64,000 nucleotides of DNA from Giesbergeria sp. (GCA_026647025.1 JAPKHH010000004.1:12743-76742); one strand, 5' to 3'; shown: positions 3,692-26,755, counted from the first letter of the stretch. A program made the numbers and translations. Notes: generated by a model not told the origin, from the sequence alone.

Positions 3692-3766
3692 CGCCTCCCA
3701 AGGAGCGTTGCAGCGGCCCACGCCGCCAGGCTTGGGCCCTAGACCACCCGCAACGACGCTCACCTG
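3692..3766 (+). ncRNA. SAH riboswitch upstream of metH
   Basis: CCAAG-GAGCGTTGC-AGCGGC...GCCGCCAGG-CTTGG...CAACGACGCTCA matches the SAH riboswitch core (P1 CCAAG/CTTGG, GAGCGYUGC, CCAGGCU, AACGRCGCUCA). It lies directly 5' of metH. Confidence 0.88.
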
Positions 3767-3796
3767 CTTGCGGGTTTGTTTGCACAGGTGAGGCGC

Positions 3797-9400: not shown

Positions 9401-10222
9401 TCAGGCGCGGCCCTGCGCCTGTGCCAGCAACAAGGCCACCAGTGTTTCGGCTGCAGTGAGCACGATCTCGCTCAGGGCGGCCACCCGGTCGGCCTCTTTG
9501 CGCATCTGCGCGGGGTTCTGGCTTGCGAACAGAACTTGCTCGTAGGGCGCCCATACGCGCCGCACTTCTGCCGCCTGGGTCTTGACCGGTTCCGAGACAA
9601 AGGGCGAGTTTTCGATCGCGGGCAGTACGGCAGTGAAGTGGGCCCGGCTGAGGTGCAGCTCCATGTGGGCGGGAGCATCGTAGAGCCCCCAGGTGCGGTA
9701 GAAGTAGAACTTGGCCATGCGCTGCGTCAGCATGCGTTGGCGTCCGGCGATACCGATCAGATGGTCGAGTGGCGCACCGACCACGTTTTCGTAGGCCACC
9801 GTGTTGCGGTGCGCCGCCTGCTGCAGGGCCTCGTTGGCGTCGTAAAGCAGGTTGGCCGCTTGCCGGCCGGGGGGCTCGGCCAGCTGTGTCCGGAAGTGGG
9901 CCCACTGGGTTGCAAGGGGGGCCATGGCATTGCGCACCGCAGGGGTGGGCTGGAATCCACGCAGGGTGCCCAGGTGCGACTCGAATTGTTCGATCGATGC
10001 CTGCCACAGGCGGGTGGCCTGTTCAGGGGCAATGGATTGGCCAACCTGCAGATAGGTCTTGACGATGCGCTGGGACAGCATGCGCAACCGGCCCGCCAGG
10101 TCCACGGCCGAGGCCGTGTCCAGCCGGGGAGCCGTGGGGGCCGACTGCGCAAGAAGCGATGCGGGCCACGCAGCAACGCCGGACCCTCCCAGAAGCCACA
10201 CGCAGAATTGGAATCGGTCCAC
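9401..10222 (-). CDS. Exported protein with two PilJ/NarX-like sensor repeats and no output domain
   Basis: N-terminal signal-like segment. Repeats AVDLAGRLRMLSQRIVK and IGIAGRQRMLTQRMAK resemble the NarX P-box. Confidence 0.75.
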   Translation of the reverse strand: MDRFQFCVWLLGGSGVAAWPASLLAQSAPTAPRLDTASAVDLAGRLRMLSQRIVKTYLQVGQSIAPEQATRLWQASIEQFESHLGTLRGFQPTPAVRNAMAPLATQWAHFRTQLAEPPGRQAANLLYDANEALQQAAHRNTVAYENVVGAPLDHLIGIAGRQRMLTQRMAKFYFYRTWGLYDAPAHMELHLSRAHFTAVLPAIENSPFVSEPVKTQAAEVRRVWAPYEQVLFASQNPAQMRKEADRVAALSEIVLTAAETLVALLLAQAQGRA

Positions 10223-10360: not shown

Positions 10361-11134
10361 CTACTTTTCGACGAAGGCCCGCTCGATGACGAAATCACCT
10401 GGCTTGGTGGTGTTGCCTTCCTCGAAGTCGCGCTTTTCCAGCAGCGTCTTGAGCGAGGCGAGCATCTCGGGGCTGCCGCAGAGCATCACGCGGTCGGTCA
10501 GCGGGTCCAGCGGGGGCACGCCCAGGTCGGTGAACAGCTTGCCGCTCTCGATCAGGTCGTTGATGCGGCCCTGGTTCTTGAAGGGTTCGCGCGTCACCGT
10601 GGGGTAGTACTTGAGCTGCTGGCTCACCATCTCGCCCAGGATCTCGTGGGCGGGCAGTTCCTGGGTCAGGTAGTCGTGGTAGGCCAGCTCGTTCACCTGC
10701 CGCACACCGTGCACCAGGACCACTTCCTCGAACTTCTCGTAGGTCTCGGGGTCGCGGATCACGCTCAGGAACGGTGCCAGCCCCGTGCCTGTGGACAGCA
10801 GGTACAGGCGCTTGGCCGGCAGCAGGTAGTCGATCAGCAGGGTGCCCGTGGGCTTCTTGCCGACGATGATGGTGTCGCCCACCTGGATGTGCTGCAGGCG
10901 CGAGGTCAGCGGGCCGTCGGGCACCTTGATGCTCAGGAACTCCAGGTGTTCCTCGTAGTTGGCACTGACGATGCTGTAAGCGCGCAGCAGGGGTTTGTCG
11001 TTCACCTTCAGGCCGATCATGGTGAAGTGCCCGTTGGAGAACCGCAAGGCCGGGTCGCGGGTGGTGGTGAAGCTGAAAAGGCGGTCGGTCCAATGGTGAA
11101 CCGACAGCACGCGTTCTTCAAGAAAAGCGCTCAT
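10361..11134 (-). CDS. fpr: Ferredoxin/flavodoxin-NADP+ reductase
   Basis: RAYSIVS, STGTGLAPF, MLCGSPEML, FVIERAFVEK. Confidence 0.95.
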   Translation of the reverse strand: MSAFLEERVLSVHHWTDRLFSFTTTRDPALRFSNGHFTMIGLKVNDKPLLRAYSIVSANYEEHLEFLSIKVPDGPLTSRLQHIQVGDTIIVGKKPTGTLLIDYLLPAKRLYLLSTGTGLAPFLSVIRDPETYEKFEEVVLVHGVRQVNELAYHDYLTQELPAHEILGEMVSQQLKYYPTVTREPFKNQGRINDLIESGKLFTDLGVPPLDPLTDRVMLCGSPEMLASLKTLLEKRDFEEGNTTKPGDFVIERAFVEK

Positions 11135-11312
11135 GGTGTATTGGCAGGGATGTTGGAAACAGGTGCGCGCAGCGCGTCGCGGCGGAATGGAACCAGAGGC
11201 GACGCGCGATGCGGGTATTCCCCGTATTGTCCCGCAAAGCGCCGCACCGGTTCTGGCGGGGATCAAACCGGGGTGATTTCTGTGCTTGTGTGCGTGCCCC
11301 AGGACCGTGGAA

Positions 11313-12446
11313 TCAACGGTACTGCGCCAGATAGCGCCGCTCGAACCCGCGCTTGGCCCAGTGCATCAGGCGCAGGGGCGGCAGCAGCAGATTGCGCCGC
11401 TCGGTGCGCCAGACCAGGGTGCCGGTGCCCAGCGCGTCGATGATGCAGGCCAGCTCGACCTTGAAACCCGTGGTTTGCGGCCGTCCGGCCAGGCCGTCGA
11501 TCAGGTTCTGTGCAGCGGCGGCAGCCTGCAGGTCGGCCATGTGGGCTTGCTTGGGCATCCAGTCGGGGCCAGGAAAGCTGCCCGAGTCACCGACCACATA
11601 GACACGCTCCAGGCCGGGTACCCGGCACTGGGCGTCGGCCTGCAGCAGGCCGCCGGGCGAGCGCGGCAGGGTGGTTTGGTCGAACCAGGCGTTGCCGGTC
11701 ATGCCGGGCATGAACAGGATCAGGTCGGCGGCAAATTCACCGCCTTCGGTCACCACCTTGTCGGCCTCGAAGCGCAGCATCTTGTGGCCCAGGTGCGTGG
11801 TGATGTTGCGGCGTTCCATCTCGGCCAGCAGGTGGGCCACGGCCTTGGCGCCCAGGCGGGCGCCGGGTTCCTTGGAAGGGTTGAAGAACACCAGCTCGAA
11901 CTTGTCGCGCCGTCCCTCGCGGCGCAGCTGCGCGTCGATGCCGAACAGAAACTCGAACATCGGCCCGCCGCGCACCGCTGTCGGTTCGTTGGGGTTGCCG
12001 GCAAAGCCTACGGCAATGGTGCCGCCTTGCAGGGCCCGCAGCCGGTCGCGGATCTGCTCGGCTGCCGCAATGCCTTCGCAGGGCGTGATGGCGTGCCCGA
12101 TGCCGGGCAGTTTCTTGATGAAGCGCCCGCCGGTGGCGATCACCAGCGCGTCGTTGGCCACTTCGCCCGCCGTGGTCTGCACGCTGCGGGCGTCGGGCGT
12201 GAGGCCGGTGACCTCGGCGGCCAGGTGCTGCACGTCCATCCGTGCAAAGAATGGCGCCAGCGGCATGATGAGCTGCTCGCGCGTGCGCAGGCCGCTGGGA
12301 ATCCAGATGATGCCGGGCAGGTAGTGCAGTTCGCTGCGCGGGGAGATAAGGGTGATGGCGTCTTTGCAGCCGCGTGCGCGCAGTTCGCGCACGGCCGATA
12401 GCGCGCCAAAGCCGCTGCCCAGGATGGTGATGTGCTGGCCCGCCAT
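11313..12446 (-). CDS. sqrF: Sulfide:quinone oxidoreductase, type VI (SqrF)-like
   Basis: GSGFGA FAD motif; Cys123 (ITPCEG), Cys274, Cys334 (ELACIID); AVRGGPMFE lacks the second catalytic Cys of other SQR types. Confidence 0.75.
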   Translation of the reverse strand: MAGQHITILGSGFGALSAVRELRARGCKDAITLISPRSELHYLPGIIWIPSGLRTREQLIMPLAPFFARMDVQHLAAEVTGLTPDARSVQTTAGEVANDALVIATGGRFIKKLPGIGHAITPCEGIAAAEQIRDRLRALQGGTIAVGFAGNPNEPTAVRGGPMFEFLFGIDAQLRREGRRDKFELVFFNPSKEPGARLGAKAVAHLLAEMERRNITTHLGHKMLRFEADKVVTEGGEFAADLILFMPGMTGNAWFDQTTLPRSPGGLLQADAQCRVPGLERVYVVGDSGSFPGPDWMPKQAHMADLQAAAAAQNLIDGLAGRPQTTGFKVELACIIDALGTGTLVWRTERRNLLLPPLRLMHWAKRGFERRYLAQYR

Positions 12447-12447
12447 G

Positions 12448-12861
12448 TCAGTGGCCCTGGCCGCCCAGGGCCGTCACGACCCGCAGCAGGGCGGTGCGTG
12501 CGCCTTCCAGCGCCTCGCGCACGGCGGGGTTCTGGCTGGCGCTGGCTGCCAGGATCACGCGCGGGTCCTGCAGCAGCACGCGCGTCTGGCCGGGGGTGGC
12601 CTCGTGCGCGCTGGCGCCGCAGGGCAGCAGTGCGGCGATGTCGGGCTCTGCCGTGACCAGCGCGTGCGCCACCTTGGGCGAGCACACGCCGAGCAGGCGC
12701 TGGGGTGCGCTGTCGATGCCCAGCTTGGCTTTCAGTGTGGCCTGCATGTCCACCTCGCTGACGATGCCCATCTGCTCGGCGGCCAGGGCTGCCCGCAGGG
12801 TGTCGATGGCGGCGGACAGGGGCTGCGCAAGGGTGATGGCAAAGGCATAGGAGGGGGACAT
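12448..12861 (-). CDS. DUF302 domain protein
   Basis: GIVSEVDMQATLKAKLG...LGVCSPKVA...LLPCG pattern. Confidence 0.82.
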   Translation of the reverse strand: MSPSYAFAITLAQPLSAAIDTLRAALAAEQMGIVSEVDMQATLKAKLGIDSAPQRLLGVCSPKVAHALVTAEPDIAALLPCGASAHEATPGQTRVLLQDPRVILAASASQNPAVREALEGARTALLRVVTALGGQGH

Positions 12862-12886
12862 GGCCGGTCTTTCCGAAATATGAATA

Positions 12887-12940
12887 AAAACTGCCTCTGG
12901 CACTTGATGGTCAAGCGCCATTAGCTATCAACTAAATAGC
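12887..12940 (-). repeat. Dispersed bipartite palindromic repeat, copy 2
   Basis: Minus strand: GCTAT-N7-ATAGC, GCGCTTGACCATCAAGTG, GAGGCAGTTTT. Confidence 0.85.
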
Positions 12941-12947
12941 AAACTGG

Positions 12948-15658
<2,711 letters not shown>

Positions 15659-15736
15659 GGTGTTATCTCCCACGGGTCAGCAGGGATTGCAGCCAGCGCA
15701 CAAAATTTGCGCCGTGCCGCGCCCAGCAAGGACACG

Positions 15737-16099
15737 TCATGCCGTGGCCTTTACGGCCAGGGTGCTGAATTCTTCAAAGGCGGCCGATGCCTTGGCGGCG
15801 TACATCAGCGACGGCCCGCCCCCCATGTAGACCGCCATGCCCAGCGTTTCTGCGACTTCTTCGCGGGTGGCGCCGAACTTGACGAGCGCCTGGGCGTGGT
15901 AGCCCACGCAGGGGTCGCAGCGCGCGCCCACCGAGAGGGCGAGGGCAATCAGTTCCTTGGTTTTCTTGTCGAGCACGCCGTCCTTGCCGGCCGCCTGGGC
16001 CATGGCGGAGAAGCCGCGCAGGGTGTCGGGGATGTCCGCACGCAGCTGTGCGAGCTGGGCCGAGGTTTCTTGCGTCAGGGTGAGGTAGCTGGTGGTCAT
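15737..16099 (-). CDS. Carboxymuconolactone decarboxylase/AhpD-family protein with CxxC
   Basis: LDKKTKELIALALSVGARCDPCVGYH...MGGGPSLMYA. Confidence 0.88.
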   Translation of the reverse strand: MTTSYLTLTQETSAQLAQLRADIPDTLRGFSAMAQAAGKDGVLDKKTKELIALALSVGARCDPCVGYHAQALVKFGATREEVAETLGMAVYMGGGPSLMYAAKASAAFEEFSTLAVKATA

Positions 16100-16111
16100 G
16101 GTTTTCTAAGT

Positions 16112-16166
16112 AAAAATGGCTTCCAGCGCTTATGGAGCAAGCGCTGATAGCTATGAAGTTGATAGT
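16112..16166 (-). repeat. Dispersed bipartite palindromic repeat, copy 3 (overlaps the RND stop codon)
   Basis: Minus strand: ACTAT-N7-ATAGC, GCGCTTGCTCCATAAGCGC, GAAGCCATTTTT. Confidence 0.85.
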
Positions 16167-19100
16167 TCTTCATCCCGTGTCAGTGCGCCCAGGCGCTTGC
16201 GGTAGGCCGCGTAGTACAGGGTGGGGATGACCACCAGCGTGAGCACGGTGGAGACGGCGATGCCAAAGATCAGCGAGATCGCCAGCCCGTTGAAGATCGG
16301 GTCGTCCAGGATGAAGAAGGCGCCCAGCATGGCGGCCAGCCCGGTCAGCACGATGGGCTGCGCGCGCGTGATGGCCGAGTTGACGATGGCCTGCTTGAAA
16401 TCCATGCCGCTGCGCACCTGCAGGTTGATGAAGTCCACCAGCAGGATGGAGTTGCGCACGATGATGCCGGCCAGCGCAATCATGCCGATCATGCTGGTGG
16501 CGGTGTACTGCGCGCCCAGCAGCGCGTGGCCGGGCATCACGCCGATGATGGTCAGCGGAATCGGCGCCATGATGATGAGCGGCGTGAGGTAGCTGCCAAA
16601 CTGCGCCACCACCAGCAGGTAGATCAGGACCAGGCCCACGGCATAGGCGGCGCCCATGTCGCGGAAGGTCTCGTAGGTGATCTGCCACTCGCCGTCCCAC
16701 TTGAGGGCGTAGCCGCGCCAGGCGTCCTGCGGCTGGTGGATGAAGTATTCGTCCAGCGTGCCGCCGTCCGGCATGGGTAACTGGGCGATGTCGCCGCGCA
16801 TGGCAAACATGCCGTAGAGCGGGCTGTCGATCTTGCCTGCCATGTCGGCGACCACGTAGTTCACGGGCAGCAGGTCCTTGTGGTACACGGGCTGCTCGCG
16901 CAGCGTGTCGCTCACGGTGACCAGTTCACGGATAGGCACCAGCGCCCCCGAGGCCGAGCGCACCGTGAGCTGCAGCAGCGCGGCCAGGTTGCCCTGCTGC
17001 TCCGGCGGCAGCTGCAGCATGGCGGCGGCGGGGTATTTGCTTTGGTCGTGCACATAGGCCGTGGCTTCGCCGGCCAGCCCGGCGCGCAACGTGGTCACGA
17101 TGGCCTGCTGCGGCACGCCCAGCATGGCGGCCTTGCGCCGGTCGACCAGCAGCACGGTGCGCGGGGCGTCGGCAATGCTGCTGTCGTCCACATCCACCAG
17201 GCCTGCGGCCTTGTCGAACACGCCGCGCACCGCCTTGGCCACCTGGCGGCGGCCTTCGGCCTCAGGTCCATAGATTTCGGCCACGATGGGCGAGAGCACG
17301 GGCGGGCCGGGCGGCACTTCCACCACCTTCACGTTGCCGCCAAAGCGTTTGGCAATTTCCTGCAGCGGCGCTCGCACGCGCGTGGCAATGGCGTGGCTCT
17401 GGTCGGCTCGTGCGTGCTTGTCCACCAGGTTGACCTGGATGTCGCCCACCTCGCCCCCGGCGCGCAGGTAGTACTGGCGCACCAGGCCGTTGAAGTTGAT
17501 GGGTGCAGCCGTACCCGCGTAGGCTTGGTAGTCGGTCACTTCGGGCACCGTCACCAAATAGGCGCCCAGCTCGTGCATCAGCGCTGCAGTGCGCTCCACG
17601 GGCGTGCCCGCGGGCATGTCCACCACCACCTGGAATTCGGACTTGTTGTCAAAGGGCAGCATCTTGAGCAGCACCAGCCCGGTGGCTGGCAGTGCCACAG
17701 AGAGGGCGATCAGCAGCGCCACGCCCAGGCCCAGCAGGCCCCGGTTGCGTCCGCCGCGCTTTTCATCGAGCAGGGGCGTGAAGATGCGCGTGAACAGCGG
17801 CGTGATGCGCCGCGCCATGCCCGAGGGTTGGGCGTGGCCTTCTTCGGTGCCGCCGTGGTGCGCCTTCATCCACAGGCGCGCCAGCCAGGGCGTCACGACA
17901 AAGGCAATCGCCAGCGACAGCAGCATGCCCATGCTGGCGTTGATCGGGATGGGGCTCATGTACGGGCCCATCAGCCCCGAGACAAAGGCCATGGGCAGCA
18001 GTGCGGCGATCACGGTGAGGGTGGCGAGGATGGTGGGGCCACCCACCTCATCGACTGCGCCGGGAATGAGTTGCGCCAGCGTCTTGTCGGGCTCTAGCTT
18101 CTGGTGGCGGTGGATGTTCTCGACCACCACGATGGCGTCATCCACCAGGATGCCGATGGAGAAGATGAGTGCAAACAGCGACACCCGGTTGAGCGTGAAG
18201 CCCCAGGCCCAGGACGCAAACAGCGTGGCGGTGAGGGTGAGTACCACGGCCGTGCCGACGATGGCCGCCTCGCGCCGCCCCAGTGCGATGAACACCAGCG
18301 CCACGACCGAAGCGGTGGCGAACAGCAGCTTCTGGATCAGTTTTTGCGCCTTGTCGTTGGCTGTTGCGCCGTAGTTGCGCGTTTCGGCCACCTGCACTGC
18401 CGCGGGAATCACGGTGTTCTTCAGGGTCTCGACCCGTGCCATGACTGCGTTGGCGACGTCGATGGCGTTTTCGCCCGGCTTCTTGGTGATGGCGATGGTG
18501 ACGGCCGGGTACTCTGCCGCCTTTTCGCCCGCCGTGCCATGCCACACATAGCGGCTGGCGGGCGGCGCACCATCGCGCACCTGGGCGACTTCGCGCAGGA
18601 ACACCGGTTTGCCACTGCGTACGCCCACCACCAGATCGGCCACATCCTGGGCGCCCTGCAGGAAGGGGCCGGACTCGATGGCCACGGAGCGGTTGCCACC
18701 CAGCAGCTCGCCCACGGGCAGGCCCAGGTTGGCCGATTGCAGCGCCATGCGCAGGTCGGCCACGGTGACGCCCATGCCCGCCATGCGGGCAGGGTCCAGT
18801 TCCACCATCACGGCGCGGCCGGGGCCGCCGATGGTGGTGACTTCGCGCGTGCCGGGCACGCGCTTCAGATCGGCTTCCACGCTGTGCGCCACGCGCTCGA
18901 GGTCAAAAGCGCCGGTGTCCGGCTGGTCGCTGAACAGGGTGAGCGAGACGATGGGCACATCGTCAATACCCTTGGGCTTGATGATCGGGTCCAGCACGCC
19001 CAGGCCCTGGGGCAGCCAGTCGGCGTTGGAGTTGACCGTGTCGTACAGGCGTACCAGCGCCTCGGTGCGCGGCACGCCCACCTTGAACTGCACCGTGAGA

Positions 19101-19402
19101 ATGGCCACGCCAGGGCGCGAGAGCGACATCACATGCTCGGCGCCGGTGATCTGCGAGAGCACCTGCTCGGCCGGAATGGTCACCATCTGTTCCACGTCGC
19201 GCACGCTGGCGCCGGGGAATGGAATCAGCACGTTGGCCATGGTGACGTTGATCTGCGGCTCTTCCTCGCGCGGCGTCACCAGCACGGCAAACGCGCCGAG
19301 CAAAAAGGCCACCAGCGCCAGCAGCGGGGTGATCTGTGCCCCCTGGAAAAACGCCGCAATGCGCCCCGAAATGCCCATGCCCTTGTGTTTCTGTTCTTGC
19401 AT
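16151..19402 (-). CDS. RND efflux permease (AcrB/CusA superfamily)
   Basis: PREEEPQI, GILVDDAIVVVENI, GIIVRNSILLVDF, TRAQPIVLT; ~1080 aa. Confidence 0.93.
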   Translation of the reverse strand: MQEQKHKGMGISGRIAAFFQGAQITPLLALVAFLLGAFAVLVTPREEEPQINVTMANVLIPFPGASVRDVEQMVTIPAEQVLSQITGAEHVMSLSRPGVAILTVQFKVGVPRTEALVRLYDTVNSNADWLPQGLGVLDPIIKPKGIDDVPIVSLTLFSDQPDTGAFDLERVAHSVEADLKRVPGTREVTTIGGPGRAVMVELDPARMAGMGVTVADLRMALQSANLGLPVGELLGGNRSVAIESGPFLQGAQDVADLVVGVRSGKPVFLREVAQVRDGAPPASRYVWHGTAGEKAAEYPAVTIAITKKPGENAIDVANAVMARVETLKNTVIPAAVQVAETRNYGATANDKAQKLIQKLLFATASVVALVFIALGRREAAIVGTAVVLTLTATLFASWAWGFTLNRVSLFALIFSIGILVDDAIVVVENIHRHQKLEPDKTLAQLIPGAVDEVGGPTILATLTVIAALLPMAFVSGLMGPYMSPIPINASMGMLLSLAIAFVVTPWLARLWMKAHHGGTEEGHAQPSGMARRITPLFTRIFTPLLDEKRGGRNRGLLGLGVALLIALSVALPATGLVLLKMLPFDNKSEFQVVVDMPAGTPVERTAALMHELGAYLVTVPEVTDYQAYAGTAAPINFNGLVRQYYLRAGGEVGDIQVNLVDKHARADQSHAIATRVRAPLQEIAKRFGGNVKVVEVPPGPPVLSPIVAEIYGPEAEGRRQVAKAVRGVFDKAAGLVDVDDSSIADAPRTVLLVDRRKAAMLGVPQQAIVTTLRAGLAGEATAYVHDQSKYPAAAMLQLPPEQQGNLAALLQLTVRSASGALVPIRELVTVSDTLREQPVYHKDLLPVNYVVADMAGKIDSPLYGMFAMRGDIAQLPMPDGGTLDEYFIHQPQDAWRGYALKWDGEWQITYETFRDMGAAYAVGLVLIYLLVVAQFGSYLTPLIIMAPIPLTIIGVMPGHALLGAQYTATSMIGMIALAGIIVRNSILLVDFINLQVRSGMDFKQAIVNSAITRAQPIVLTGLAAMLGAFFILDDPIFNGLAISLIFGIAVSTVLTLVVIPTLYYAAYRKRLGALTRDEELSTS

Positions 19403-19412
19403 GGCGGGCCTT

Positions 19413-20450
19413 TCAGCGTGCGCGGGTGGCAGACAGCGGATCGAGCACCACGGCATCTCCGGGGGCTACGCCACTGAGCACCTCGACGCGATCACCTTCC
19501 ACCCGGCCCAGGCGGACCTGGCGCAGCAGCGGCTTGCCGCTCCCGTCCTGCACATACAGACCGGTCATTTCGGCACGGCGCACGATGGCGGAAACCGGCA
19601 CCGTCACCCGCTGGCCCTGGTCCGCAGCCCCTGCGGTCGGCAGCCACAGGCGGGCAAACATGCCGGGCACCACTCCCTGCACGCTGGCGGGCAGCTCGGC
19701 GCGTACCTGCACGGTGTGTGTCGCGGCGTCGACGGTGGGCAGCACCTGCACGCGCGCGGCCTGCGGCCATTGCTGCGCGGCGGGCAGGCCGGGCAACTCC
19801 ACGCGCACGGCATCCGCCTGCACGCGTGGCGCCAGCGACTGCGGCACGGCGGCCGTTACGCGCAGGCTGCCGGGGTCGTAGAGCGAGAGCAAGGTGCGGC
19901 CCGGCATGGCCATGTCGCCCAGTTGTACCGGTACCTCGGCCACGATGCCGGCATAGGGTGCACGCACGATGTTGAGCGCGGCCCCGGTGCGGGCTGCACC
20001 GGCCTGCGCTGCCTGGGCCGCGACCTGGGCGCGGGCCGCCTTGAAGTGGGATTCGGCCTGGTCCAGTGCGGCCTGGCTGATGTATTTCTTCTGGAAAAGC
20101 TGCTTCTGGCGCTCGAATTCGCGCGTGGCCGCGTCCAGCGCGGCGCGGGCGGCCAGTACCTGGGCGTCGCTGGCGGCGGCGCTCTGGTCGGCGGCGCGGG
20201 CATCAATGCGCAACAGCAGTTGCCCGGCCTTGACATGGTCTCCCGCCTTCACGTTCAGCTCGACCACGGCGCCGGGCGTCTGGGCGGCCACCACGGTCTG
20301 GCGCACGGCCTCGACCACACCGTCAAAGCCGGTGCGGCCCTGCAGGGCCGCCGCCTGTGCGGGAGCGGTTTGCAGATCCGCCGCCTGGGCTGTGCCGGTC
20401 AAGGCCAGCGCGACCGCCAGTGCTTTCATGAAGGGGTGAATTTTCAGCAT
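19413..20450 (-). CDS. RND periplasmic adaptor (membrane fusion protein)
   Basis: Signal peptide, lipoyl/barrel-sandwich VKAGDHVKAGQLL, coiled coil, VRAPYAG. Confidence 0.9.
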   Translation of the reverse strand: MLKIHPFMKALAVALALTGTAQAADLQTAPAQAAALQGRTGFDGVVEAVRQTVVAAQTPGAVVELNVKAGDHVKAGQLLLRIDARAADQSAAASDAQVLAARAALDAATREFERQKQLFQKKYISQAALDQAESHFKAARAQVAAQAAQAGAARTGAALNIVRAPYAGIVAEVPVQLGDMAMPGRTLLSLYDPGSLRVTAAVPQSLAPRVQADAVRVELPGLPAAQQWPQAARVQVLPTVDAATHTVQVRAELPASVQGVVPGMFARLWLPTAGAADQGQRVTVPVSAIVRRAEMTGLYVQDGSGKPLLRQVRLGRVEGDRVEVLSGVAPGDAVVLDPLSATRAR

Positions 20451-20535
20451 GGTTTTTTCTTTCGCGCTCCCTGCATTGCAAGGCAGGGGCTGGTCAATCA
20501 GAAGGTGTTGGGCTATTATTTGCGCAAACAACTAA

Positions 20536-20555
20536 ATAGTCAATAAGTTGATTAT
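20536..20555. promoter_or_regulatory. Candidate ArsR operator (imperfect inverted repeat)
   Basis: ATAGTCAA-TAAG-TTGATTAT (7/8 arm symmetry) in the AT-rich gap between the divergent ArsR and MFP genes. Confidence 0.45.
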
Positions 20556-20573
20556 TGCCTTGGCACCCTTACG

Positions 20574-20951
20574 ATGAAGCCCATTCCAGCACCCGTCCAC
20601 TGCGATCGCCTGGACCAGTTGCCTGATGCTGCGCTGGGCCAGGTGGCTGCGTACTTTCGCGCGCTGGGCGAGCCCATGCGCCTGCAATTGCTGCAGTGGC
20701 TGGGCGAGGGCGAGCACACGGTCGGGGAACTGGCGGCGTTGTGTGGCTGCAGCATGGCCAACGTCTCGCGCCACCTCGCGTTGCTCACGCGCCATGGCCT
20801 GCTGCAGCGGGAGATGCGTGGTCACAACGTCTGGTACCGTCGCGCCGATGCCTCGGTGGATGTGCTGTGCGACGGTGTCTGTGGCCACATCAGCCGCCAT
20901 TTCGAGCGGTTGAGCACCGAGCGCAGCTTTCCCCCAGCGGACGTTACATAG
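20574..20951 (+). CDS. ArsR/SmtB-family transcriptional regulator, Cys-rich
   Basis: FRALGEPMRLQLL, TVGELA...SMANVSRHLALL, VWYR; Cys10, 57, 59, 99, 103. Confidence 0.9.
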   Translation: MKPIPAPVHCDRLDQLPDAALGQVAAYFRALGEPMRLQLLQWLGEGEHTVGELAALCGCSMANVSRHLALLTRHGLLQREMRGHNVWYRRADASVDVLCDGVCGHISRHFERLSTERSFPPADVT

Positions 20952-22413
20952 CGCTGCGCCAGCCCGCGCCCACGGCCTGAAACAAGGCCGCGCTGTCGGC
21001 CAGTCGCTGCGCCTGTGCCGCCACCAGGCTGCTGCGCAGTTGCAGGGCCTGCTGCTGGACGACCAGCCATTGCAGATCACTGGCGGCGCCGAGCTTGAGC
21101 TGTTGCTGCGTGGACTGCAGGCCGGCCTGTGCGGCGGTGTCGGCCCGCTCCAGCGTGGCGAGCACCTGCGCATCGGCCTCGATGGCGCGCAGGGCATCGG
21201 CCACGCTGCGCAGGGCGTCGAGCACCACCATCTGGTATTGCGCGGCAGCGGCGTCCAGCGCGGCCAGTGCGGCGCGTTGCTGCGCGGGCAAGGCCGGGTC
21301 GAACAAGGGCTGGGTGAGCTGGGCAATCAGGCCCCACACGGCTGAGCCGCCACCAAACAGGGCACCCGTGGTCAGCGCCTGGCTGCCCAGATTCGCGCTG
21401 AGCCGGATTTGCGGGTACATGCGCGCCACGGCCACGCCATGCTCGGCGCTGGCCACGCGCACCAGCGCTTCGGCGGCCTGGATGTCGGGGCGTTGGCGCA
21501 CCAGTTCAGAGGGCAGCACCTGCGGCAGCTCGGCGGGCAGTGTGAAATCTTCCAGGCTGAACGCGGGCAGCGGCTCGGCGCCCGGTGCGCGCCCGGCCAA
21601 CACGGCCAGCAAGTGCGCGCTTTGCTGCGCCTGCTTGCGCAGCAGCAGCGCGGAGGCGCGGGTCTGCTCCAGCGCCGCCTGCAGGGCCTGCACATCGGCC
21701 GGCATGGCCTGGCCCAGGCGCAGGCGTTCCTGGGCGATGTCGGTTTGCGCCGCCTGGTTGCGGGCGATCGCCTCCAGGGCTTCGGCCTGGCCCGCAATGC
21801 GGGCCTGGGTGATGGCCGTGCTGGCGATGCGTGCGGCCAGGTCGAGGCGGGCCCCGGCGAGCTGGTAGCGGCGGTAGTCGGTGCGTGCCGCCAGGGCCTG
21901 CAGCGCCCGGCGGTTGCCGCCCGACACGTCGAGCTGGTACTGCACGCTGACGCTGGCGCTGTGCAGGCTGAAGGTGCGCCCGTCGCCGGGCAAGCCCTGT
22001 GCGCTGGGCGAGCTGTGCTGGCGCGCGCTGCCCACGCCCAGGTCGGCGCGCGGCCATTGGGTGGCGCGCTCCTGCGCCCCCTGCAGTTCCTCAGCCTGGC
22101 GCAGTTGTGCCTGCGCGGCCGCCAGCGTCGGGCTGGCCTGCAGGGCTTGGTCGATCAGCGCGTCCAGGCTGGGGGAACCGAGCTGCTGCCACCAGGGCGC
22201 TTCGAGGTCGATGTCGGCGCGCCACGCCTGCGCCGCGCCAAAGGCGCTGCTGCTGCCCGGTGCGGTGTTTGCCGGTCGTGGCAGGGCGTTGTCCGCCAGC
22301 GGCGCAGGGGCTTGGTAATCCGGGCCCGCCGCGCAGCCAGCGAGCAGGGCGGTGAGCACCAGGGGCAAGGCGGCGCGCCCGCTGGGCAGCGCGTGGAACA
22401 AAACATTTTTCAT
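20944..22413 (-). CDS. NodT/OprM-family outer membrane factor lipoprotein
   Basis: Lipobox LLAGC, WWQQLGSPSLDALI, LVRQRPDIQAAE. Confidence 0.9.
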   Translation of the reverse strand: MKNVLFHALPSGRAALPLVLTALLAGCAAGPDYQAPAPLADNALPRPANTAPGSSSAFGAAQAWRADIDLEAPWWQQLGSPSLDALIDQALQASPTLAAAQAQLRQAEELQGAQERATQWPRADLGVGSARQHSSPSAQGLPGDGRTFSLHSASVSVQYQLDVSGGNRRALQALAARTDYRRYQLAGARLDLAARIASTAITQARIAGQAEALEAIARNQAAQTDIAQERLRLGQAMPADVQALQAALEQTRASALLLRKQAQQSAHLLAVLAGRAPGAEPLPAFSLEDFTLPAELPQVLPSELVRQRPDIQAAEALVRVASAEHGVAVARMYPQIRLSANLGSQALTTGALFGGGSAVWGLIAQLTQPLFDPALPAQQRAALAALDAAAAQYQMVVLDALRSVADALRAIEADAQVLATLERADTAAQAGLQSTQQQLKLGAASDLQWLVVQQQALQLRSSLVAAQAQRLADSAALFQAVGAGWRSAM

Positions 22414-22832
22414 GGCGTGGTTTCCTGTCGGGCTGCGCGGCCGGGCCGCAGACGCAAGGCCAGGGTGCCAATGCCCAACCACACCACAGTGCGTAATGCC
22501 ATGGCGCCGACGGTGCGCGCCTCAAAGGCGCCGCCCGTCAGCACATGGAGGCCGAAGGCCGCAAACACGAGTGCCGTGGCCAGGCCGATGCCGAGCGCCA
22601 GCCAGGCCGCCCAGCCCAGGCGCCGCCACAGCGCCACGCCCGCCGCCACGTAGGCAAAACCGGCGAGAAAGTTGAACCAGAGCACCCATGGCACATAGGC
22701 TCCGGCCGCGCTGCGTGCGGCGTCGTTGCCGAACAGCACCGTGCCGCCCTCCTTCAGGGTGAGCAGGCCAAAGAGCACAGCGAACACGCTGGCGCCGCGC
22801 AGCCAGCGATTGCGTTGCAGCAAGGGATTCAT
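22410..22832 (-). CDS. Small 4-TM membrane protein of unknown function in the exporter operon
   Basis: Four hydrophobic segments; 4-bp overlaps with both neighbours. Confidence 0.75.
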   Translation of the reverse strand: MNPLLQRNRWLRGASVFAVLFGLLTLKEGGTVLFGNDAARSAAGAYVPWVLWFNFLAGFAYVAAGVALWRRLGWAAWLALGIGLATALVFAAFGLHVLTGGAFEARTVGAMALRTVVWLGIGTLALRLRPGRAARQETTP

Positions 22833-23569
22833 GGAGTGGCTTCCTCTGGAATCTGTGGCGCCCAGGGCGTCTGCCCTTCACCCACTTCTTCGTGCGTGAT
22901 GCCGTCGCGGATGTGGTAAATCCGTTTGAAGGTGGGAATGATCTTTTCGTCGTGCGTGACCACGATCACGGCGGTTTCAAAGCGCTGCGCCATGTCGTTC
23001 AGGATGCGGATCACGGCCAGCGCGCGTTCGCTGTCGAGCGGCGCCGTGGGTTCGTCGGCCAGCACCACCGGCGGGCGGTTCACCAGCCCGCGCGCAATCG
23101 CCACGCGCTGCTGCTCGCCGCCCGAGAGAGCCGAGGGCATGGCGCGGGCGCGGTGGCCCACGTCCAGCGCTTCCAGCAAATCGCGCGCCCGCTTGCGCGC
23201 CTCAGCGTTCGGCACCCCGGCCAGCATGGGCAGCAGGGCGACGTTGTCGGTCACGTCCAGAAAAGGAATCAGGTAAGGCGCCTGGAACACGAAACCAATG
23301 CGGTCGCGCCGCAGCGCGCGCAGGTCGCGAATTTTCCAGCCGTTGTCGTAGATGACCTCGTCGCCCAGCGTCATGCGCCCGGCGCTGGGTTCGATCACGG
23401 CGCCCAGGCATTTGAGCAGCGTGCTCTTGCCAGAGCCGGACGGCCCGATCAGCCCCACCACCTCACCCGGCGCCACCACCATGTTGACGTCCTTGAGCGC
23501 GTCCACGGCGGTGTCGCCCTGTCCGTAGCGCTTGCGCACGCCTTCGATGCGTATTCCGTTGCCTGCCAT
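22829..23569 (-). CDS. ABC transporter ATP-binding protein (LolD/MacB/DevA-like)
   Basis: GPSGSGKST, LSGGEQQRV, LADEPT, VTHD. Confidence 0.95.
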   Translation of the reverse strand: MAGNGIRIEGVRKRYGQGDTAVDALKDVNMVVAPGEVVGLIGPSGSGKSTLLKCLGAVIEPSAGRMTLGDEVIYDNGWKIRDLRALRRDRIGFVFQAPYLIPFLDVTDNVALLPMLAGVPNAEARKRARDLLEALDVGHRARAMPSALSGGEQQRVAIARGLVNRPPVVLADEPTAPLDSERALAVIRILNDMAQRFETAVIVVTHDEKIIPTFKRIYHIRDGITHEEVGEGQTPWAPQIPEEATP

Positions 23570-23570
23570 G

Positions 23571-24809
23571 TCAGCCTCCCACCGCTTCGGCGGGATCGAC
23601 GCGCAACGCGGCGCGAATCGCGACGCCGCTGGCCAGCACGCAGATGGCCAGGATGGCGGCCAGGCCCATCGCCGTATCTTGCGGCACCAGCAGCACGTAT
23701 TTGGGGAAGGCCGGCGCCATCAGCGTGGCCGAGATCTTGCCCACCACGAAGCCAATGACTCCCAGGCCCAGCGCCTGCTGCACGATCATGCCTGCGATGG
23801 TGCGGTTCTTGGTGCCGATGAGCTTGAGCACCGCGATCTCGCGGATCTTGCCCAGCGTCAGCGTGTAGATGATGAAGGCCACGATGGCCGCGCTGACCAG
23901 CGCCAGAATGGCCAGGAACATGCCGATCTGCCGGGCCGATGTGGCGATGAGCTTGCCGATCAGAATGCCCTCCATCTGCGCGCGCGTAGTGGCCGTGAGA
24001 CGCTGCCAGCGCTGGATCGACGCGGCCACTTCCTCGGCGTCGTGTCCTGGCCGAACGCGCACCAGCACGGCGTTGACCGAAGGGTTGCTGCTTTGCGAAG
24101 CAACCACGGCGTCCAGCAGGCCGGGCACGCCAGGGCGGTTGAAAGCGGGGTTGGCGGCGGTGCGGCGGCGGCTTTGCCAGAGCGCATCGTTGTCGCGCAG
24201 AAACTGTGCTGCCTGGGCATCCTTGAGCGGGATGAACACCATGGGGTCACCGCCCGAGGACACCATGCGCCGCGTGAGCCCGACCACGGTGTACACATTG
24301 CGCCGGATCTGGATGCGCTCGCCCAGCGCCAGGCCGCTGGCGATGTCGGCCACCGCCTCGTAGTGGCTGCGCGTGAGCTGCCGCCCGGCCACCAGATAGG
24401 GCGGCCAGCCGGGCGTGCCGCTGCCGCCGGGCGCGATGCCGACCACCATGGCGCGCACGTCGCTGGCGGCACGGGCCGTGCCTGCCGCGCCAGCATTGCC
24501 TGCCAGGCGCTGCACCTGCATCGTCAGGTAGGTGACGTTGGCAGCGTCCTGCACGCCGGGCAGCGCCCGCAGGCTGCGCCAGGTGCTGTCGTTCAGGCTC
24601 GATGGCTCGGCGTACGGGCCCAGCGTGCCCTGCTGCACCACCCAGATGTCGGCGCCGCTGTTGTCCAGCAGGGCGCGCCCGTCGTCCACCATGCCGCGGT
24701 ACACGCCTGCCATGGTGAGCGTGACGCCGATCAGCAGCCCCAGGCCAATGCCCGTGAAGACAAACTTGCCCCAGGCATGGAGGATGTCGCGGCCCGCCAG
24801 GCTGATCAC
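23571..24809 (-). CDS. ABC transporter permease (FtsX/MacB, DevC/HrtB-like)
   Basis: GTG start overlapping the upstream TGA (MISLAGRDILH...); KIREIAVLKLIGT; 1+3 TM layout. Confidence 0.88.
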   Translation of the reverse strand: MISLAGRDILHAWGKFVFTGIGLGLLIGVTLTMAGVYRGMVDDGRALLDNSGADIWVVQQGTLGPYAEPSSLNDSTWRSLRALPGVQDAANVTYLTMQVQRLAGNAGAAGTARAASDVRAMVVGIAPGGSGTPGWPPYLVAGRQLTRSHYEAVADIASGLALGERIQIRRNVYTVVGLTRRMVSSGGDPMVFIPLKDAQAAQFLRDNDALWQSRRRTAANPAFNRPGVPGLLDAVVASQSSNPSVNAVLVRVRPGHDAEEVAASIQRWQRLTATTRAQMEGILIGKLIATSARQIGMFLAILALVSAAIVAFIIYTLTLGKIREIAVLKLIGTKNRTIAGMIVQQALGLGVIGFVVGKISATLMAPAFPKYVLLVPQDTAMGLAAILAICVLASGVAIRAALRVDPAEAVGG

Positions 24810-25957
24810 GGCGCCCCCTTGACGATGCGGTCCACCACATGGGTGTTGCTGCGTGCGGTCAGTTCCTTCTCGCTGTAGACAACGATGCGCGCGCCTTCTG
24901 CAAGGCCGCTGTGCACCTGCACCTGGCCGTCCAGGTCGGCCCGACCCAGTACCAGGGGGGCAAAGCGCAGGCCGTCGGCGCCCAACTCCCACACGCCCAT
25001 CTTTCCGTCCACGCGCCGCAGGGCGGCATTGGGGATGGTGGGTGCAGCGGCGAGTTCGGGCAGGTGAATGGTGACTTCCGCCAGGGTGCCCAGCGGCGGC
25101 AAGGGTGTGGGCAGGGAGGCCAGCACCACCTTCGCCAGGGTTTCTTCGGTCACGGCATCGGCCAGGGGTTCGACACGCAGCACGCGCGCGGCCAGTGGCG
25201 CTCCAACGTCCGAGCGCAGCAGCACCTGCGCGGACAAACCGGCGGCGAGGCCGGCCGCACTGGTCTGGTCAAAGCGCACATTGACCCACAGGCTGTTCGG
25301 GTCCACCAGGTCCACTACCGCCTGTCCGGGCACCACGGTGCTGCCGGGCTCGGCCAGGCGCGCTGTCACCAGCGCGTCGGCCGGGGCGCGCAGGCGCAGC
25401 TGGCCGCGCTGCGTGCGCAGGGCTTCCTGCTCCGCGCGCAGGCGTGCCACTTCGGCCTGGCTGCCCGCCAGAGCAGCGTTGGCGCTGGCCAAGTCCTGCT
25501 GGCGCGCGGTGGCAATTTCTTCGCTGGTGGCACGCACGGCCAGCAACTCGGCGTAGCGCGTAGCCTGGGTCTGTGCCTGCTGCTGGCGGGCCTGTGCGTC
25601 CTTCAGGGCGGCCTGGGCCCGCTGTACGGCGGCAGCCTGGGCGCGCAGGCGCTCGTCAAAGTCCACGGCATCCATTTCGCCCAGCACCTGCCCGGCCGTG
25701 ACGCGGTCGCCTACTTGGACCGACAGGCGCAGCACGCGGCCCGCCACCGTGGGGCCAACGTGGTAGGTGGTGCGCGCCTCCACCGTGCCGATACCGAACA
25801 GGGCGGGGGTGATGGAGCGCTGCTCGGCCGTGGCCACGGTGACGGCCACCGGAGCGAGCGGCCCGGAGCGCAGCACCACATAGACGAACAAGGCCAGCAG
25901 GGGCAGCACGACGGCCAGCAGGGCCAGGGTACGGCGTTGCAGGGGAAGACGGCTCAT
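24806..25957 (-). CDS. Periplasmic adaptor (HlyD/MFP) of the ABC exporter
   Basis: N-terminal TM, VGPTVAGRV...VQVGDRVTAGQVLG, coiled coil. Confidence 0.9.
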   Translation of the reverse strand: MSRLPLQRRTLALLAVVLPLLALFVYVVLRSGPLAPVAVTVATAEQRSITPALFGIGTVEARTTYHVGPTVAGRVLRLSVQVGDRVTAGQVLGEMDAVDFDERLRAQAAAVQRAQAALKDAQARQQQAQTQATRYAELLAVRATSEEIATARQQDLASANAALAGSQAEVARLRAEQEALRTQRGQLRLRAPADALVTARLAEPGSTVVPGQAVVDLVDPNSLWVNVRFDQTSAAGLAAGLSAQVLLRSDVGAPLAARVLRVEPLADAVTEETLAKVVLASLPTPLPPLGTLAEVTIHLPELAAAPTIPNAALRRVDGKMGVWELGADGLRFAPLVLGRADLDGQVQVHSGLAEGARIVVYSEKELTARSNTHVVDRIVKGAP

Positions 25958-26577
25958 GGTGTGCTCCGGATACCGCGCTGATAGATGGCAAACACCCGCG
26001 GCGCATCGCGGCGGATGCGCTCCACGTCGCCCGACAGCATGGACTGCATGACCAGGCCCTGGATGGTGCCGATGAACAGCGTGGCGGCGGCCTCGGTGTC
26101 CAGCGTGGGATCGATTTCGCCCTCGGCCTTGCCCTGTGCGAACAATTGCTGCAGACGCTCGCCGTAGCGCCCCAGCAGCGTGCGCACCATGCGCCGTGGC
26201 AGGCTGTCGCCGGTGCGCTGGAGTTCGCCAAACATCATGCGCGGCACGCCGGGGTGCTCGGCGATGAACCCGGTGTGTGCCAGGAACATGGCTTCAAGCG
26301 CGGCCAGGGGCGTGGCAGCATCCTGCGCTGCACGCTCCACCCGGGCCAGCAACTGCTCGGCCACCCATTCCATCACGGCCTGCAGGATGGCGTCCTTCGT
26401 GGGGAAGTGCCGGAACAGTGCGCCTTGTGTCAGATGCATGTGGCTGGCGATGGCGCTGGTGGTGATGTCGCTGGGGTTCTGCGTGGCGGCCAGTTGCACC
26501 ACCGCCTCCACGGTGGCGGCGCGGCGCTCGTCGGCTGGCAGAGGCTTGGCACGGGTGGTCACGAGGACAGTCTCCAT
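25954..26577 (-). CDS. TetR/AcrR-family regulator
   Basis: ITTSAIASHMHLTQGALFRHFPTKDAIL. Confidence 0.93.
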   Translation of the reverse strand: METVLVTTRAKPLPADERRAATVEAVVQLAATQNPSDITTSAIASHMHLTQGALFRHFPTKDAILQAVMEWVAEQLLARVERAAQDAATPLAALEAMFLAHTGFIAEHPGVPRMMFGELQRTGDSLPRRMVRTLLGRYGERLQQLFAQGKAEGEIDPTLDTEAAATLFIGTIQGLVMQSMLSGDVERIRRDAPRVFAIYQRGIRSTP

Positions 26578-26602
26578 AAGTGAGTAATCAATTACTATCT
26601 TA
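26577..26602. promoter_or_regulatory. Candidate TetR operator
   Basis: TAAGTGAGTAAT-CA-ATTACTATCTTA; arms 10/12 complementary; abuts the tetR start codon. Confidence 0.6.
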
Positions 26603-26755
26603 TGGGGTGAGCGATTTTTGTGCAAGACATGCGGCAAGTCCCCGTGCGGACCAGGGGCGTGTGCGTGGGGTCATGACGACGACGGCAGGCGTTGCCGTGC
26701 GCAGAGACGGCCTTCAGCGCACAGGGCGCCTCGGCAGTGCACGAAATATATGGGA

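Follow-up and report, generated by a model that had tools for sequence, protein, structure and literature searches.

The stretch of DNA analysed here, called the window throughout, covers 64,000 nucleotides (nt) of a Giesbergeria sp. genome (GCA_026647025.1, JAPKHH010000004.1:12743-76742). This genome measures 3.7 Mb, with 64.6% GC and a completeness of 99.96%. The clade of the window is formed by Giesbergeria and Simplicispira (Comamonadaceae), the closest named relatives, and the same DNA is present in metagenomes from activated sludge, bioreactors and wastewater. On the minus strand, from 20531 down to 11313, seven genes lie in the order MFP–RND–CMD–TolC–sqr1–DUF302–sqr2, and a gene for an ArsR-family regulator diverges from them on the plus strand. 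The group joins two sulfide:quinone oxidoreductases (SQRs) to a complete RND efflux pump, and the part that this pump may play in sulfide handling is the subject of the present analysis.

Gene content of the locus

Genes were called by combining a listing of open reading frames (ORFs), a GC3 gene filter, and Pfam and NCBIfam searches. All eight genes proposed in an earlier, sequence-only reading of this DNA were recovered with the same order, orientation and coordinates. The description of the divergent ArsR protein as cysteine-rich was likewise accurate. The features of the locus are:

20574-20951, plus strand: ArsR/SmtB-family repressor of 125 amino acids (aa) with 5 cysteines (HTH_20/HTH_5, NF033788)
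20517-20538: predicted operator, the 22-bp inverted repeat TATTTGCGCAAACAACTAAATA (TATTTR-N10-YAAATA), from the consensus of 24 class-A loci
20515-20543, minus strand: predicted sigma-70-type promoter of the pump–sqr operon (TTGACT at 20543-20538, 17 nt, AATAAT at 20520-20515)
19413-20452, minus strand (ORF to 20531): MFP periplasmic adaptor with a signal peptide (TIGR01730, 192 bits; HlyD_D23)
16151-19402, minus strand (ORF to 19456; 19402 is the likely start): RND permease of a distinct subfamily (ACR_tran, E 1e-142)
15737-16099, minus strand: CMD/AhpD-like thiol oxidoreductase, 120 aa (PF02627, E 5e-23; TIGR00778)
14285-15673, minus strand (probable start 15658): TolC-type outer-membrane factor (two OEP repeats; TIGR01844, 214 bits)
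12948-14219, minus strand: sqr1, predicted type I SQR (SqrA), 423 aa (match to A. ferrooxidans SQR)
12448-12921, minus strand: DUF302 protein (PF03625, E 2e-17)
11313-12446, minus strand: sqr2, predicted type VI SQR (SqrF), 377 aa (C123, C274, C334 and F368; homologue comparison)
10361-11266, minus strand: FNR-like FAD/NAD(P)-binding oxidoreductase (FAD_binding_6 and NAD_binding_1)

Transcription and operator

The operon is predicted to be a single ArsR-repressed transcription unit in which two SQRs and a complete pump are co-transcribed. This prediction is made because a promoter scan returned one strong minus-strand promoter (score 10/12), the promoter and terminator scan found no convincing intergenic terminator down to position 10361, the gene junctions are short or overlapping, and RNA contigs bridge them. 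Metatranscriptome contigs from four runs, covering soil and wastewater, span the whole operon and cross the RND–MFP, TolC–sqr1, DUF302–sqrF and sqrF–fnr junctions, the interval 11266-11313 being bridged in three runs; as assembled contigs that may include DNA, they are evidence for in situ expression and not for induction. One such contig ends at 20493, where adapter sequence follows, close to the predicted transcription start. The operon spans 20452 to 11313 and probably extends to 10361. The gap between sqrF and the FNR-like gene is 46 nt and holds no terminator, and the FNR-like gene, which is common only to the nearest relative (locus L001), is probably the lineage-specific last gene of the transcript. 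In two soil metatranscriptomes, a contig covering 13136-14588 (sqr1 with the final 300 nt of tolC) is approximately 5 times as deep as a contig covering 14559-15604 (the rest of tolC). An internal sqr1 promoter could account for this difference, and so could reads from the same, highly conserved gene in other organisms.

The divergent region between arsR and the MFP gene measures 121 bp, because the true MFP start is the ATG at 20452 (N-terminus MLKIHPFMKALAVALALTGTAQA). The predicted operator sits in this region between the -35 and -10 hexamers and overlaps the promoter. Its arms, TATTT and AAATA, show 80-99% column identity in 24 loci with the same ArsR class, in which the MFP gene is preceded by the consensus TTGAC-TATTTR-N10-YAAATA-ATA. 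Related loci keep the TTGACT...AAATAATA frame, and the inner operator bases vary yet remain palindromic within individual loci. When the whole 3.7-Mb genome was scanned with the operator motif for a wider ArsR regulon, the single match was the regulator's own site. Repressor control is predicted from three properties of the operator, namely its conservation in 24 loci, its overlap with the promoter and its single occurrence in the genome; the predicted layout is that of a classic ArsR/SmtB repressor blocking its target promoter. The 5′ untranslated region predicted for the MFP gene also contains a perfect-loop hairpin of 10+10 nt at 20469-20488 (CCCTGCATTG/CAAGGCAGGG), and a GC-rich inverted repeat occupies the same place in locus L038.

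The ArsR regulator

The regulator belongs to the ArsR/SmtB winged-helix family (NF033788, 73 bits, above the cut-off of 55). On alignment with BigR (3pqj), the position of BigR residue C42 in helix α2 is occupied by Gln (LQLLQWLGEGE), and a BigR/SqrR-type sensor identity was ruled out for lack of this α2 cysteine. Instead, a CxxxC pair (LCDLVCG, residues C99 and C103) is kept in 22 of 24 ArsR orthologues adjoining the pump and falls in helix α5 according to an SmtB alignment. The N-terminal cysteine C10 is found in about two thirds of the 24 orthologues, and C57 and C59 are not conserved among them. Judged by these alignments, the window ArsR is a new subclass with a conserved α5 CxxxC and, often, an N-terminal cysteine.

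Other lineages place different regulators beside the pump. Classified by their cysteine patterns, these comprise ArsR proteins that have the cysteine pair of BigR and SqrR, a second ArsR group with α2 and C-terminal cysteines, and CsoR-family proteins that resemble CstR in having two cysteines and in lacking a His where the copper ligand would be. The analogy with these regulators makes it probable that the CxxxC ArsR senses reactive sulfur as well.

Two different sulfide:quinone oxidoreductases

The sqr1 product is unambiguously assigned to the type I SQRs, because it matches A. ferrooxidans SQR (3sz0) over its full length, the region of the C-terminal membrane-binding helices included (E 3.6e-188, 629 bits, residues 2-422 of 423 aligned), and all three catalytic cysteines are kept: the A. 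ferrooxidans motifs around C128, C160 and C356 are matched by C127 (SICT), C159 and C353 (AICLAD). The match to Aquifex SQR has an E-value of 3e-114.

The sqr2 product was compared with SqrF of Thiocapsa roseopersicina (TrSqrF) through the published residue numbering (PMC9666304) and through homologues from Thiohalocapsa, Thiothrix and Thiohalophilus. In TrSqrF, FAD is bound via Cys121, Cys332 is followed by Ile333 and flanked by hydrophobic residues, and a short single C-terminal helix carries Phe366 and Trp369 (PMC9666304). The window protein is 66% identical to the Thiohalocapsa homologue (Chromatiaceae; full length), 68% to that of Thiothrix and 67% to that of Thiohalophilus, with a single close homologue per genome. 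The 375-aa Thiohalocapsa and Thiothrix proteins have C121, C272, C332, I333, F366 and W369, and carry Leu or Ile at the position of TrSqrF Val331. In the 377-aa Thiohalophilus protein the same residues are moved by two positions, as they are in the window (C123, C274 and C334). These three cysteines are invariant across 95 homologues, and the C-terminus extends 43 residues past C334 and includes an invariant F368.

Because of its 66-68% identity to homologues whose residues match the published TrSqrF positions, sqr2 is assigned as an orthologue of type VI SqrF, and the operon is predicted to hold two different SQRs. The name sqrF, already used in the sequence-only reading, is borne out by this identity, by the TrSqrF-type residues and by the three invariant cysteines. 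The candidate view of sqr2 as an SQR-like protein in which one catalytic cysteine has been lost, which starts from the Gly at its type I C160 position, was rejected: the protein has three invariant cysteines of its own and is a SqrF orthologue. Its predicted likeness to TrSqrF lies in the FAD-linking cysteine (C123), in C334 followed by Ile, in what may be a short C-terminal helix with F368, and in the missing type I C160. It differs in having Arg at the W369 equivalent, in coming from a heterotrophic betaproteobacterium of wastewater instead of a phototroph, and in being paired with DUF302 and an efflux pump. The pairing of a type I with a type VI SQR suggests that a wide range of sulfide levels is covered, since type VI enzymes operate at high sulfide concentrations (evidence summarised in PMC9666304).

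Outside pump operons (loci L009-L080), sqrF usually occurs with a sigma-54 activator, cydAB and, directly upstream, a 211-aa MBL protein resembling persulfide dioxygenase (PDO). A truncated haemoglobin gene usually lies directly downstream in the same loci, which sometimes also hold a type II SQR. Such an arrangement resembles a second sulfide module of the FisR-like kind, with the type VI SQR at its centre.

A distinct subfamily of RND pump

The window pump resembles AcrAB–TolC and other HAE-1 systems in being three-part and in its RND protein, which has twelve helices, two large periplasmic loops and paired Asp residues in transmembrane helix 4 (TM4). However, the RND protein reaches only 432 bits against the multidrug subfamily model, a third of the cut-off of 1250, and 234 bits against the CzcA/CusA model TIGR00914, for which the cut-off is 701. 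None of the solved RND structures is markedly closer to it than the others (best PDB match, 216 bits), and in a tree its subfamily forms a clade of its own on a long branch, apart from the other RND genes of the genome. In 78 homologues, 343 columns of the RND alignment are at least 97% conserved, and none of these is Cys; the mature window protein contains no cysteine at all.

TM4 reads LVDDAIVVVEN (GILVDDAIVVVEN). Paired Asp residues at this point (VDDAIVVVEN) mark pumps for hydrophobes and amphiphiles, and the CzcA-type or HME motif is DFGxxxDGAxxxVEN. The features of HME-type pumps (CzcA/CusA) are missing from the window protein, which has neither the TM4 motif nor cysteines and scores below the model threshold. 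A covalent thiol relay through the pump was ruled out, since the RND protein has no Cys. Together with the paired Asp in TM4, this points to a cargo that would be non-covalently bound and is probably hydrophobic.

Signal peptides are present in the MFP and TolC proteins and absent from CMD, DUF302 and both SQRs. A TolC gene within the operon is limited to the 31-member RND clade that holds the window. Literature searches returned no published study of this pump's cargo. A candidate second cluster on contig C152, thought to comprise RND, rhodanese and TolC genes, proved to encode RND, an isoaspartate methyltransferase and TolC, and is unrelated.

Linkage of the pump to sqr across genomes

An RND-anchored set comprised 80 loci of 58-86% identity from Beta- and Gammaproteobacteria, or 88 with further pump-bearing loci added. 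In 31 of these 88, sqr1 or sqrF lies at most 8 kb from the pump. The sqr-linked loci are scattered across the RND tree and show at least four gene orders, with sqr placed after TolC, directly after RND, between MFP and RND, or upstream of MFP. Placement between the MFP and RND genes was seen in L123 and L129 and in the Rhodocyclaceae loci L259, L264, L269, L276 and L279.

The converse, sqr1-anchored set was made up of the closest loci for which 6 kb or more of upstream sequence was available, 51 in all. This RND subfamily is present in 46 of them, the same ArsR class in 44 and TolC in 43. DUF2892 occurs in 36, CMD in 20, sqrF in 11 and DUF302 in 4, and PDO in only 2.

Among 151 sampled Comamonadaceae genomes (150 genera), the pump was found in 62 and a type I sqr in 30. 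The pump accompanies 25 of the 30 sqr-positive cases (odds ratio 11.4, Fisher p = 2e-7, phylogeny ignored), and the two are adjacent in 18 of the 30 sqr1-positive genera. Similarly, sqrF was found in 10 genomes of this sample, nine of which have the pump, adjacent in six. In the Rhodocyclaceae, the pump occurs in 58 of 81 sampled genomes; the order MFP–sqr–RND–DUF2892 is found in 5 of 30 loci of this subfamily, at 64-67% identity to the RND protein of the window. Recurrent neighbours of the pump include DUF2892, Trx2, rhodanese, OsmC, and the BigR/SqrR-like and CstR-like regulators. The association of this RND subfamily with sqr, for which the sequence-only reading had suggested a co-occurrence check, is upheld by the 46 of 51 loci, the odds ratio and the variety of gene orders. 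The pump–sqr link is not a product of chance.

Several Rhodocyclaceae genomes (G010, G013, G027, G044, G049 and G054) have an RND gene with one or two in-frame stops, which could be pseudogenes or assembly errors. One clade of pump loci (L141, L143, L146, L148, L150, L152, L155, L156, L161, L164, L169 and L170), from Chromatiales, Thiohalophilus, Competibacter and Parabeggiatoa, has neither sqr nor DUF2892 beside the pump. A LysR gene is present instead in L141, L143, L148, L150, L153 and L169, in some cases with a Bcp peroxiredoxin and an AI-2E-like permease.

Accessory proteins

The CMD protein carries the motif C61-D-P-C64-V-G-Y-H68 and scores 54.7 bits against TIGR00778 (cut-off 27.8); it combines a CMD fold with CxxC followed by His, the pattern that defines AhpD/CMD proteins. 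Its gene, only 51 nt from that of RND, fills the slot that DUF2892 and/or Trx2 occupy in related operons. A Cys-bearing DUF2892 membrane protein of approximately 70 aa is encoded directly after the RND gene in 57 of the 88 pump loci. A search for DUF2892 in the window and in the whole genome gave no match, and judged by gene content the Giesbergeria/Simplicispira clade has lost this usual partner of the pump. Because sister operons hold either DUF2892 and Trx2 or DUF2892 and CMD, a predicted cytoplasmic CxxC oxidoreductase is a recurring and swappable part of the operon.

The stop codon of the DUF302 gene lies one base from the start of sqrF, a distance that suggests translational coupling of the two. 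Of 92 sqrF loci, only 10 have DUF302 immediately upstream of sqrF, and no assigned function for DUF302 was found in the literature. The probable location of both CMD and DUF302 is the cytoplasm. The normal source of cargo for an RND pump is the periplasm or the outer leaflet. It is therefore unlikely that CMD and DUF302 act as carriers to the pump, the role that the sequence-only reading had given them, as neither protein has a signal peptide.

Sulfur genes elsewhere in the genome

As that reading had stated, no gene for a PDO, a rhodanese or TauE lies in the window; all matches to PF00753, PF00581 and PF01925 are on other contigs. Its wider claim, that no sulfane-sulfur-oxidising enzyme accompanies the operon, fails outside the window. 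The genome search found a PDO–rhodanese fusion of 370 aa (contig C212:8337-9584, minus strand), which is the only PDO of the genome and matches Myxococcus PDO (1e-72), BpPRF (2e-57) and ETHE1 (7e-57), and in addition six further rhodanese-domain matches and four TauE genes. Because the fusion is encoded, the organism is predicted to be able to oxidise sulfane sulfur, and export instead of oxidation does not hold for the whole cell.

The neighbours of the fusion gene are housekeeping genes (coaX-like, M48-like, gmhB-like and glyS), with no regulator or operator nearby. Since the sole genomic operator is ArsR's own, the PDO–rhodanese gene is not under its control. SoxB, cytochrome bd (cydAB) and type II SQR were absent in the genome search.

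Relation to known systems

The closest described relative is the Azospira suillum PS operon Dsui_3440-3443 (Mehta-Kolte et al. 2017, mBio, PMC5358917), which encodes an unknown protein, RND, SQR and MFP and shows high expression in the presence of H2S. It was the only operon singled out by the Bar-seq fitness data of that study, and the authors guessed that the pump exports metal sulfides (PMC5358917). The Azospira operon is placed in the present RND subfamily by gene order and family-level sampling, not by sequence. Like it, the window combines a type I SQR with MFP and RND in one operon. In contrast, sqr follows TolC in the window, which has its own TolC, a type VI SQR, CMD and DUF302, lacks the small DUF2892-type gene after RND, and carries a divergent ArsR of another class. 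RND pumps are also listed among the genes beside sHdrR/SqrR-type regulators (Li et al. 2025, PMC12423496). Papers on Thiohalobacter, Nitrotoga, A. caldus SscR and selenite in P. putida mention RND and SQR only in unrelated contexts.

With SqrR of Rhodobacter capsulatus and BigR of Xylella and Agrobacterium, the window shares an ArsR-family repressor that diverges from sulfide-oxidation genes and has a palindromic predicted operator; moreover, regulators with the BigR/SqrR cysteine pair stand beside the same pump family in other lineages. The sensing residues differ, as BigR uses C42/C108 and SqrR C41/C107, whereas the window ArsR has Gln in α2 and its CxxxC in α5.

In the cst system of S. aureus (CstR; cstA, cstB, sqr and tauE) and the FisR-controlled pdo–sqr system of Cupriavidus, sulfane sulfur passes to PDO and rhodanese encoded in the same operon, and sulfite or thiosulfate leaves via TauE. 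These systems and the window operon are alike as sulfide-detoxification modules that join SQR to a persulfide-responsive regulator, which for the window is a predicted role. They differ in that the window operon has a tripartite pump and that its PDO–rhodanese gene stands alone on another contig.

The window operon is thus a variant of an operon type twice noted in the literature. What is new is the CxxxC ArsR class with its operator, the pairing of type I with type VI SQR and the replacement of DUF2892 by CMD, together with the quantitative co-occurrence figures and the genome-level accounting of sulfur genes.

Proposed role of the pump

It is highly probable that the pump is functionally part of sulfide or reactive-sulfur handling. 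For the whole mechanism proposed here, including a cargo of zero-valent sulfur, a probability of about 45% is given. The repressor would sit on the 22-bp palindrome between the -35 and -10 elements of the operon promoter, and reactive sulfur species would probably modify its α5 CxxxC cysteines and so release it. The type I and type VI SQRs would oxidise H2S at the membrane, passing electrons to quinone; their product would be zero-valent sulfur as polysulfide or S8, as established for both enzyme types. The MFP–RND–TolC pump would most likely remove an oxidation product from the periplasm or outer leaflet to the outside of the cell. Hydrophobic zero-valent sulfur or polysulfane is the leading candidate for this cargo; if not exported, it would stay trapped behind the outer membrane. 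For CMD and DUF302, the repair or reduction of persulfidated cytoplasmic thiols is a more likely task than feeding the pump, and sulfane sulfur reaching the cytoplasm would be oxidised by the PDO–rhodanese.

A more general proposal is tentative, and on balance doubtful: that the RND subfamily with its adaptor and TolC may be the long-sought exit route of SQR-made zero-valent sulfur from Gram-negative cells, switched on in Burkholderiales by a new persulfide-sensing ArsR whose α5 CxxxC at the dimer interface replaces the BigR/SqrR pair.

Several points weigh against the proposed export of zero-valent sulfur. The periplasmic orientation of type I SQR, seen in the Rhodobacter enzyme, rests on few species. 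CMD, Trx2, rhodanese, OsmC and DUF302 all look cytoplasmic, which fits sulfur handling in the cytoplasm better than export from the periplasm. The cysteine pattern of the ArsR protein could equally be compatible with binding of a thiophilic metal or As(III). Of the 62 pump-positive Comamonadaceae genera, 31 have neither a type I nor a type VI sqr, and the 12-member gammaproteobacterial pump clade shows no linkage to sqr. Thiohalocapsa and Parabeggiatoa, which belong to this clade, store sulfur inside the cell. Furthermore, deletion of the Azospira operon left the rate of perchlorate-dependent sulfide oxidation unchanged (PMC5358917).

Alternative explanations

The pump might export soluble or organic reactive sulfur (glutathione or cysteine persulfides, polysulfides, thiosulfate, sulfite or toxic organosulfur) and not elemental sulfur. 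The pump–sqr linkage counts equally for the two cargoes, low-molecular-weight thiol persulfides are suggested by the cytoplasmic CMD, Trx2 and rhodanese, and genomes that lack both type I and type VI sqr can also have the pump. However, small anions use porins and TauE-type inner-membrane carriers, and four TauE genes are encoded elsewhere in this genome. A TolC duct better suits a compound that is unable to cross the outer membrane, and the operon contains no glutathione-related gene. A soluble or organic sulfur cargo is judged unlikely, although it is the best-surviving of the alternatives to zero-valent sulfur.

A pump without any sulfur cargo, of a stress or multidrug type and merely co-regulated with sqr against membrane-active toxicants or envelope stress in sulfidic habitats, would agree with the HAE-like TM4 of the RND protein and with the many pump loci that have no nearby sqr. 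Other RND pumps are also up-regulated by H2S in Azospira (PMC5358917). Such a general role is improbable, given that sqr is inserted between MFP and RND in some lineages, and that the 343 near-invariant columns and the dedicated persulfide-type regulators indicate a specific task.

Still somewhat less probable is that, in the presence of sulfide, the pump exports metal sulfides or ions of thiophilic metals (Cd, Pb, Zn or Cu), as the authors of the Azospira study suggested for their pump (PMC5358917); ArsR would then be a metal sensor. ArsR proteins are mostly metal sensors, and Cys57, Cys59 and the C-terminal Cys of the window ArsR resemble the CmtR positions, but the score against the CmtR model is only 36 bits (cut-off 150), the orthologues do not conserve C57 and C59, and other lineages use BigR/SqrR-like and CstR-like regulators. 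The MFP protein has a sub-threshold match to the CzcB family (139 bits against a cut-off of 319). Against metal transport, TM4 reads VDDAIVVVEN and not DFG..DGA..VEN, the CzcA-type motif, the RND protein lacks Cys, and no metal-resistance genes recur in the pump neighbourhoods.

It is very improbable that the module handles arsenic or antimony thio-species, with ArsR sensing As(III), SQR-derived sulfur forming thioarsenates and the pump expelling them: ArsR, SQR and DUF302 do occur together in the arsenite-induced suoRSCT (ArsR–SQR–...–DUF302) operon of Synechocystis, as cited in PMC5061849, and the C-terminal cysteine pair of ArsR could form a three-Cys As(III) site with the N-terminal cysteine, but no ars genes (arsB/acr3, arsC or arsM) recur beside the pump, that N-terminal cysteine is missing in about a third of the ArsR orthologues, and DUF302 is rare (4 of 51 sqr1-anchored operons).

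Implications

SQR is the commonest bacterial sulfide oxidase, and many bacteria deposit sulfur outside the cell; to our knowledge, there is no accepted answer to how elemental sulfur or polysulfide passes the outer membrane. A pump family that is common and tied to sqr and to persulfide-type regulators provides a concrete and testable candidate for this sulfur exit. Such an exit would be relevant to how sulfide is controlled and sulfur recovered in wastewater treatment, the habitat of the organism. Knock-outs are feasible, as near-identical operons occur in the cultured Simplicispira psychrophila DSM 11588, S. hankyongi, Comamonas granuli, Alicycliphilus denitrificans and Variovorax beijingensis, and in Azospira suillum PS the operon has already been deleted (PMC5358917). 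The ArsR subclass and its operator offer a second, independent test, namely of persulfide sensing by the α5 CxxxC pair.

Neighbouring features of the window

A separate efflux operon encoding TetR, MFP, a MacB-type permease, an ABC ATPase and OEP adjoins arsR at 20944-26637 (minus strand) and is probably unrelated to the sulfide operon. The end of its OEP gene overlaps the 3′ end of arsR by 8 nt, and this gene is syntenic in the nearest relatives (L003, L173-L175 and L179), not further out. On the other side, 138 nt downstream of the FNR-like gene, 9401-10222 (minus strand) encodes a protein of 273 aa whose N-terminal part carries two sensor repeats of the PilJ/NarX type; the gene is syntenic in L001. 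Further away, an SAH riboswitch (RF01057, 52.6 bits) at 3694-3768 on the plus strand directly precedes a B12-dependent metH gene at 3776-6532, an arrangement that is ordinary for betaproteobacteria.

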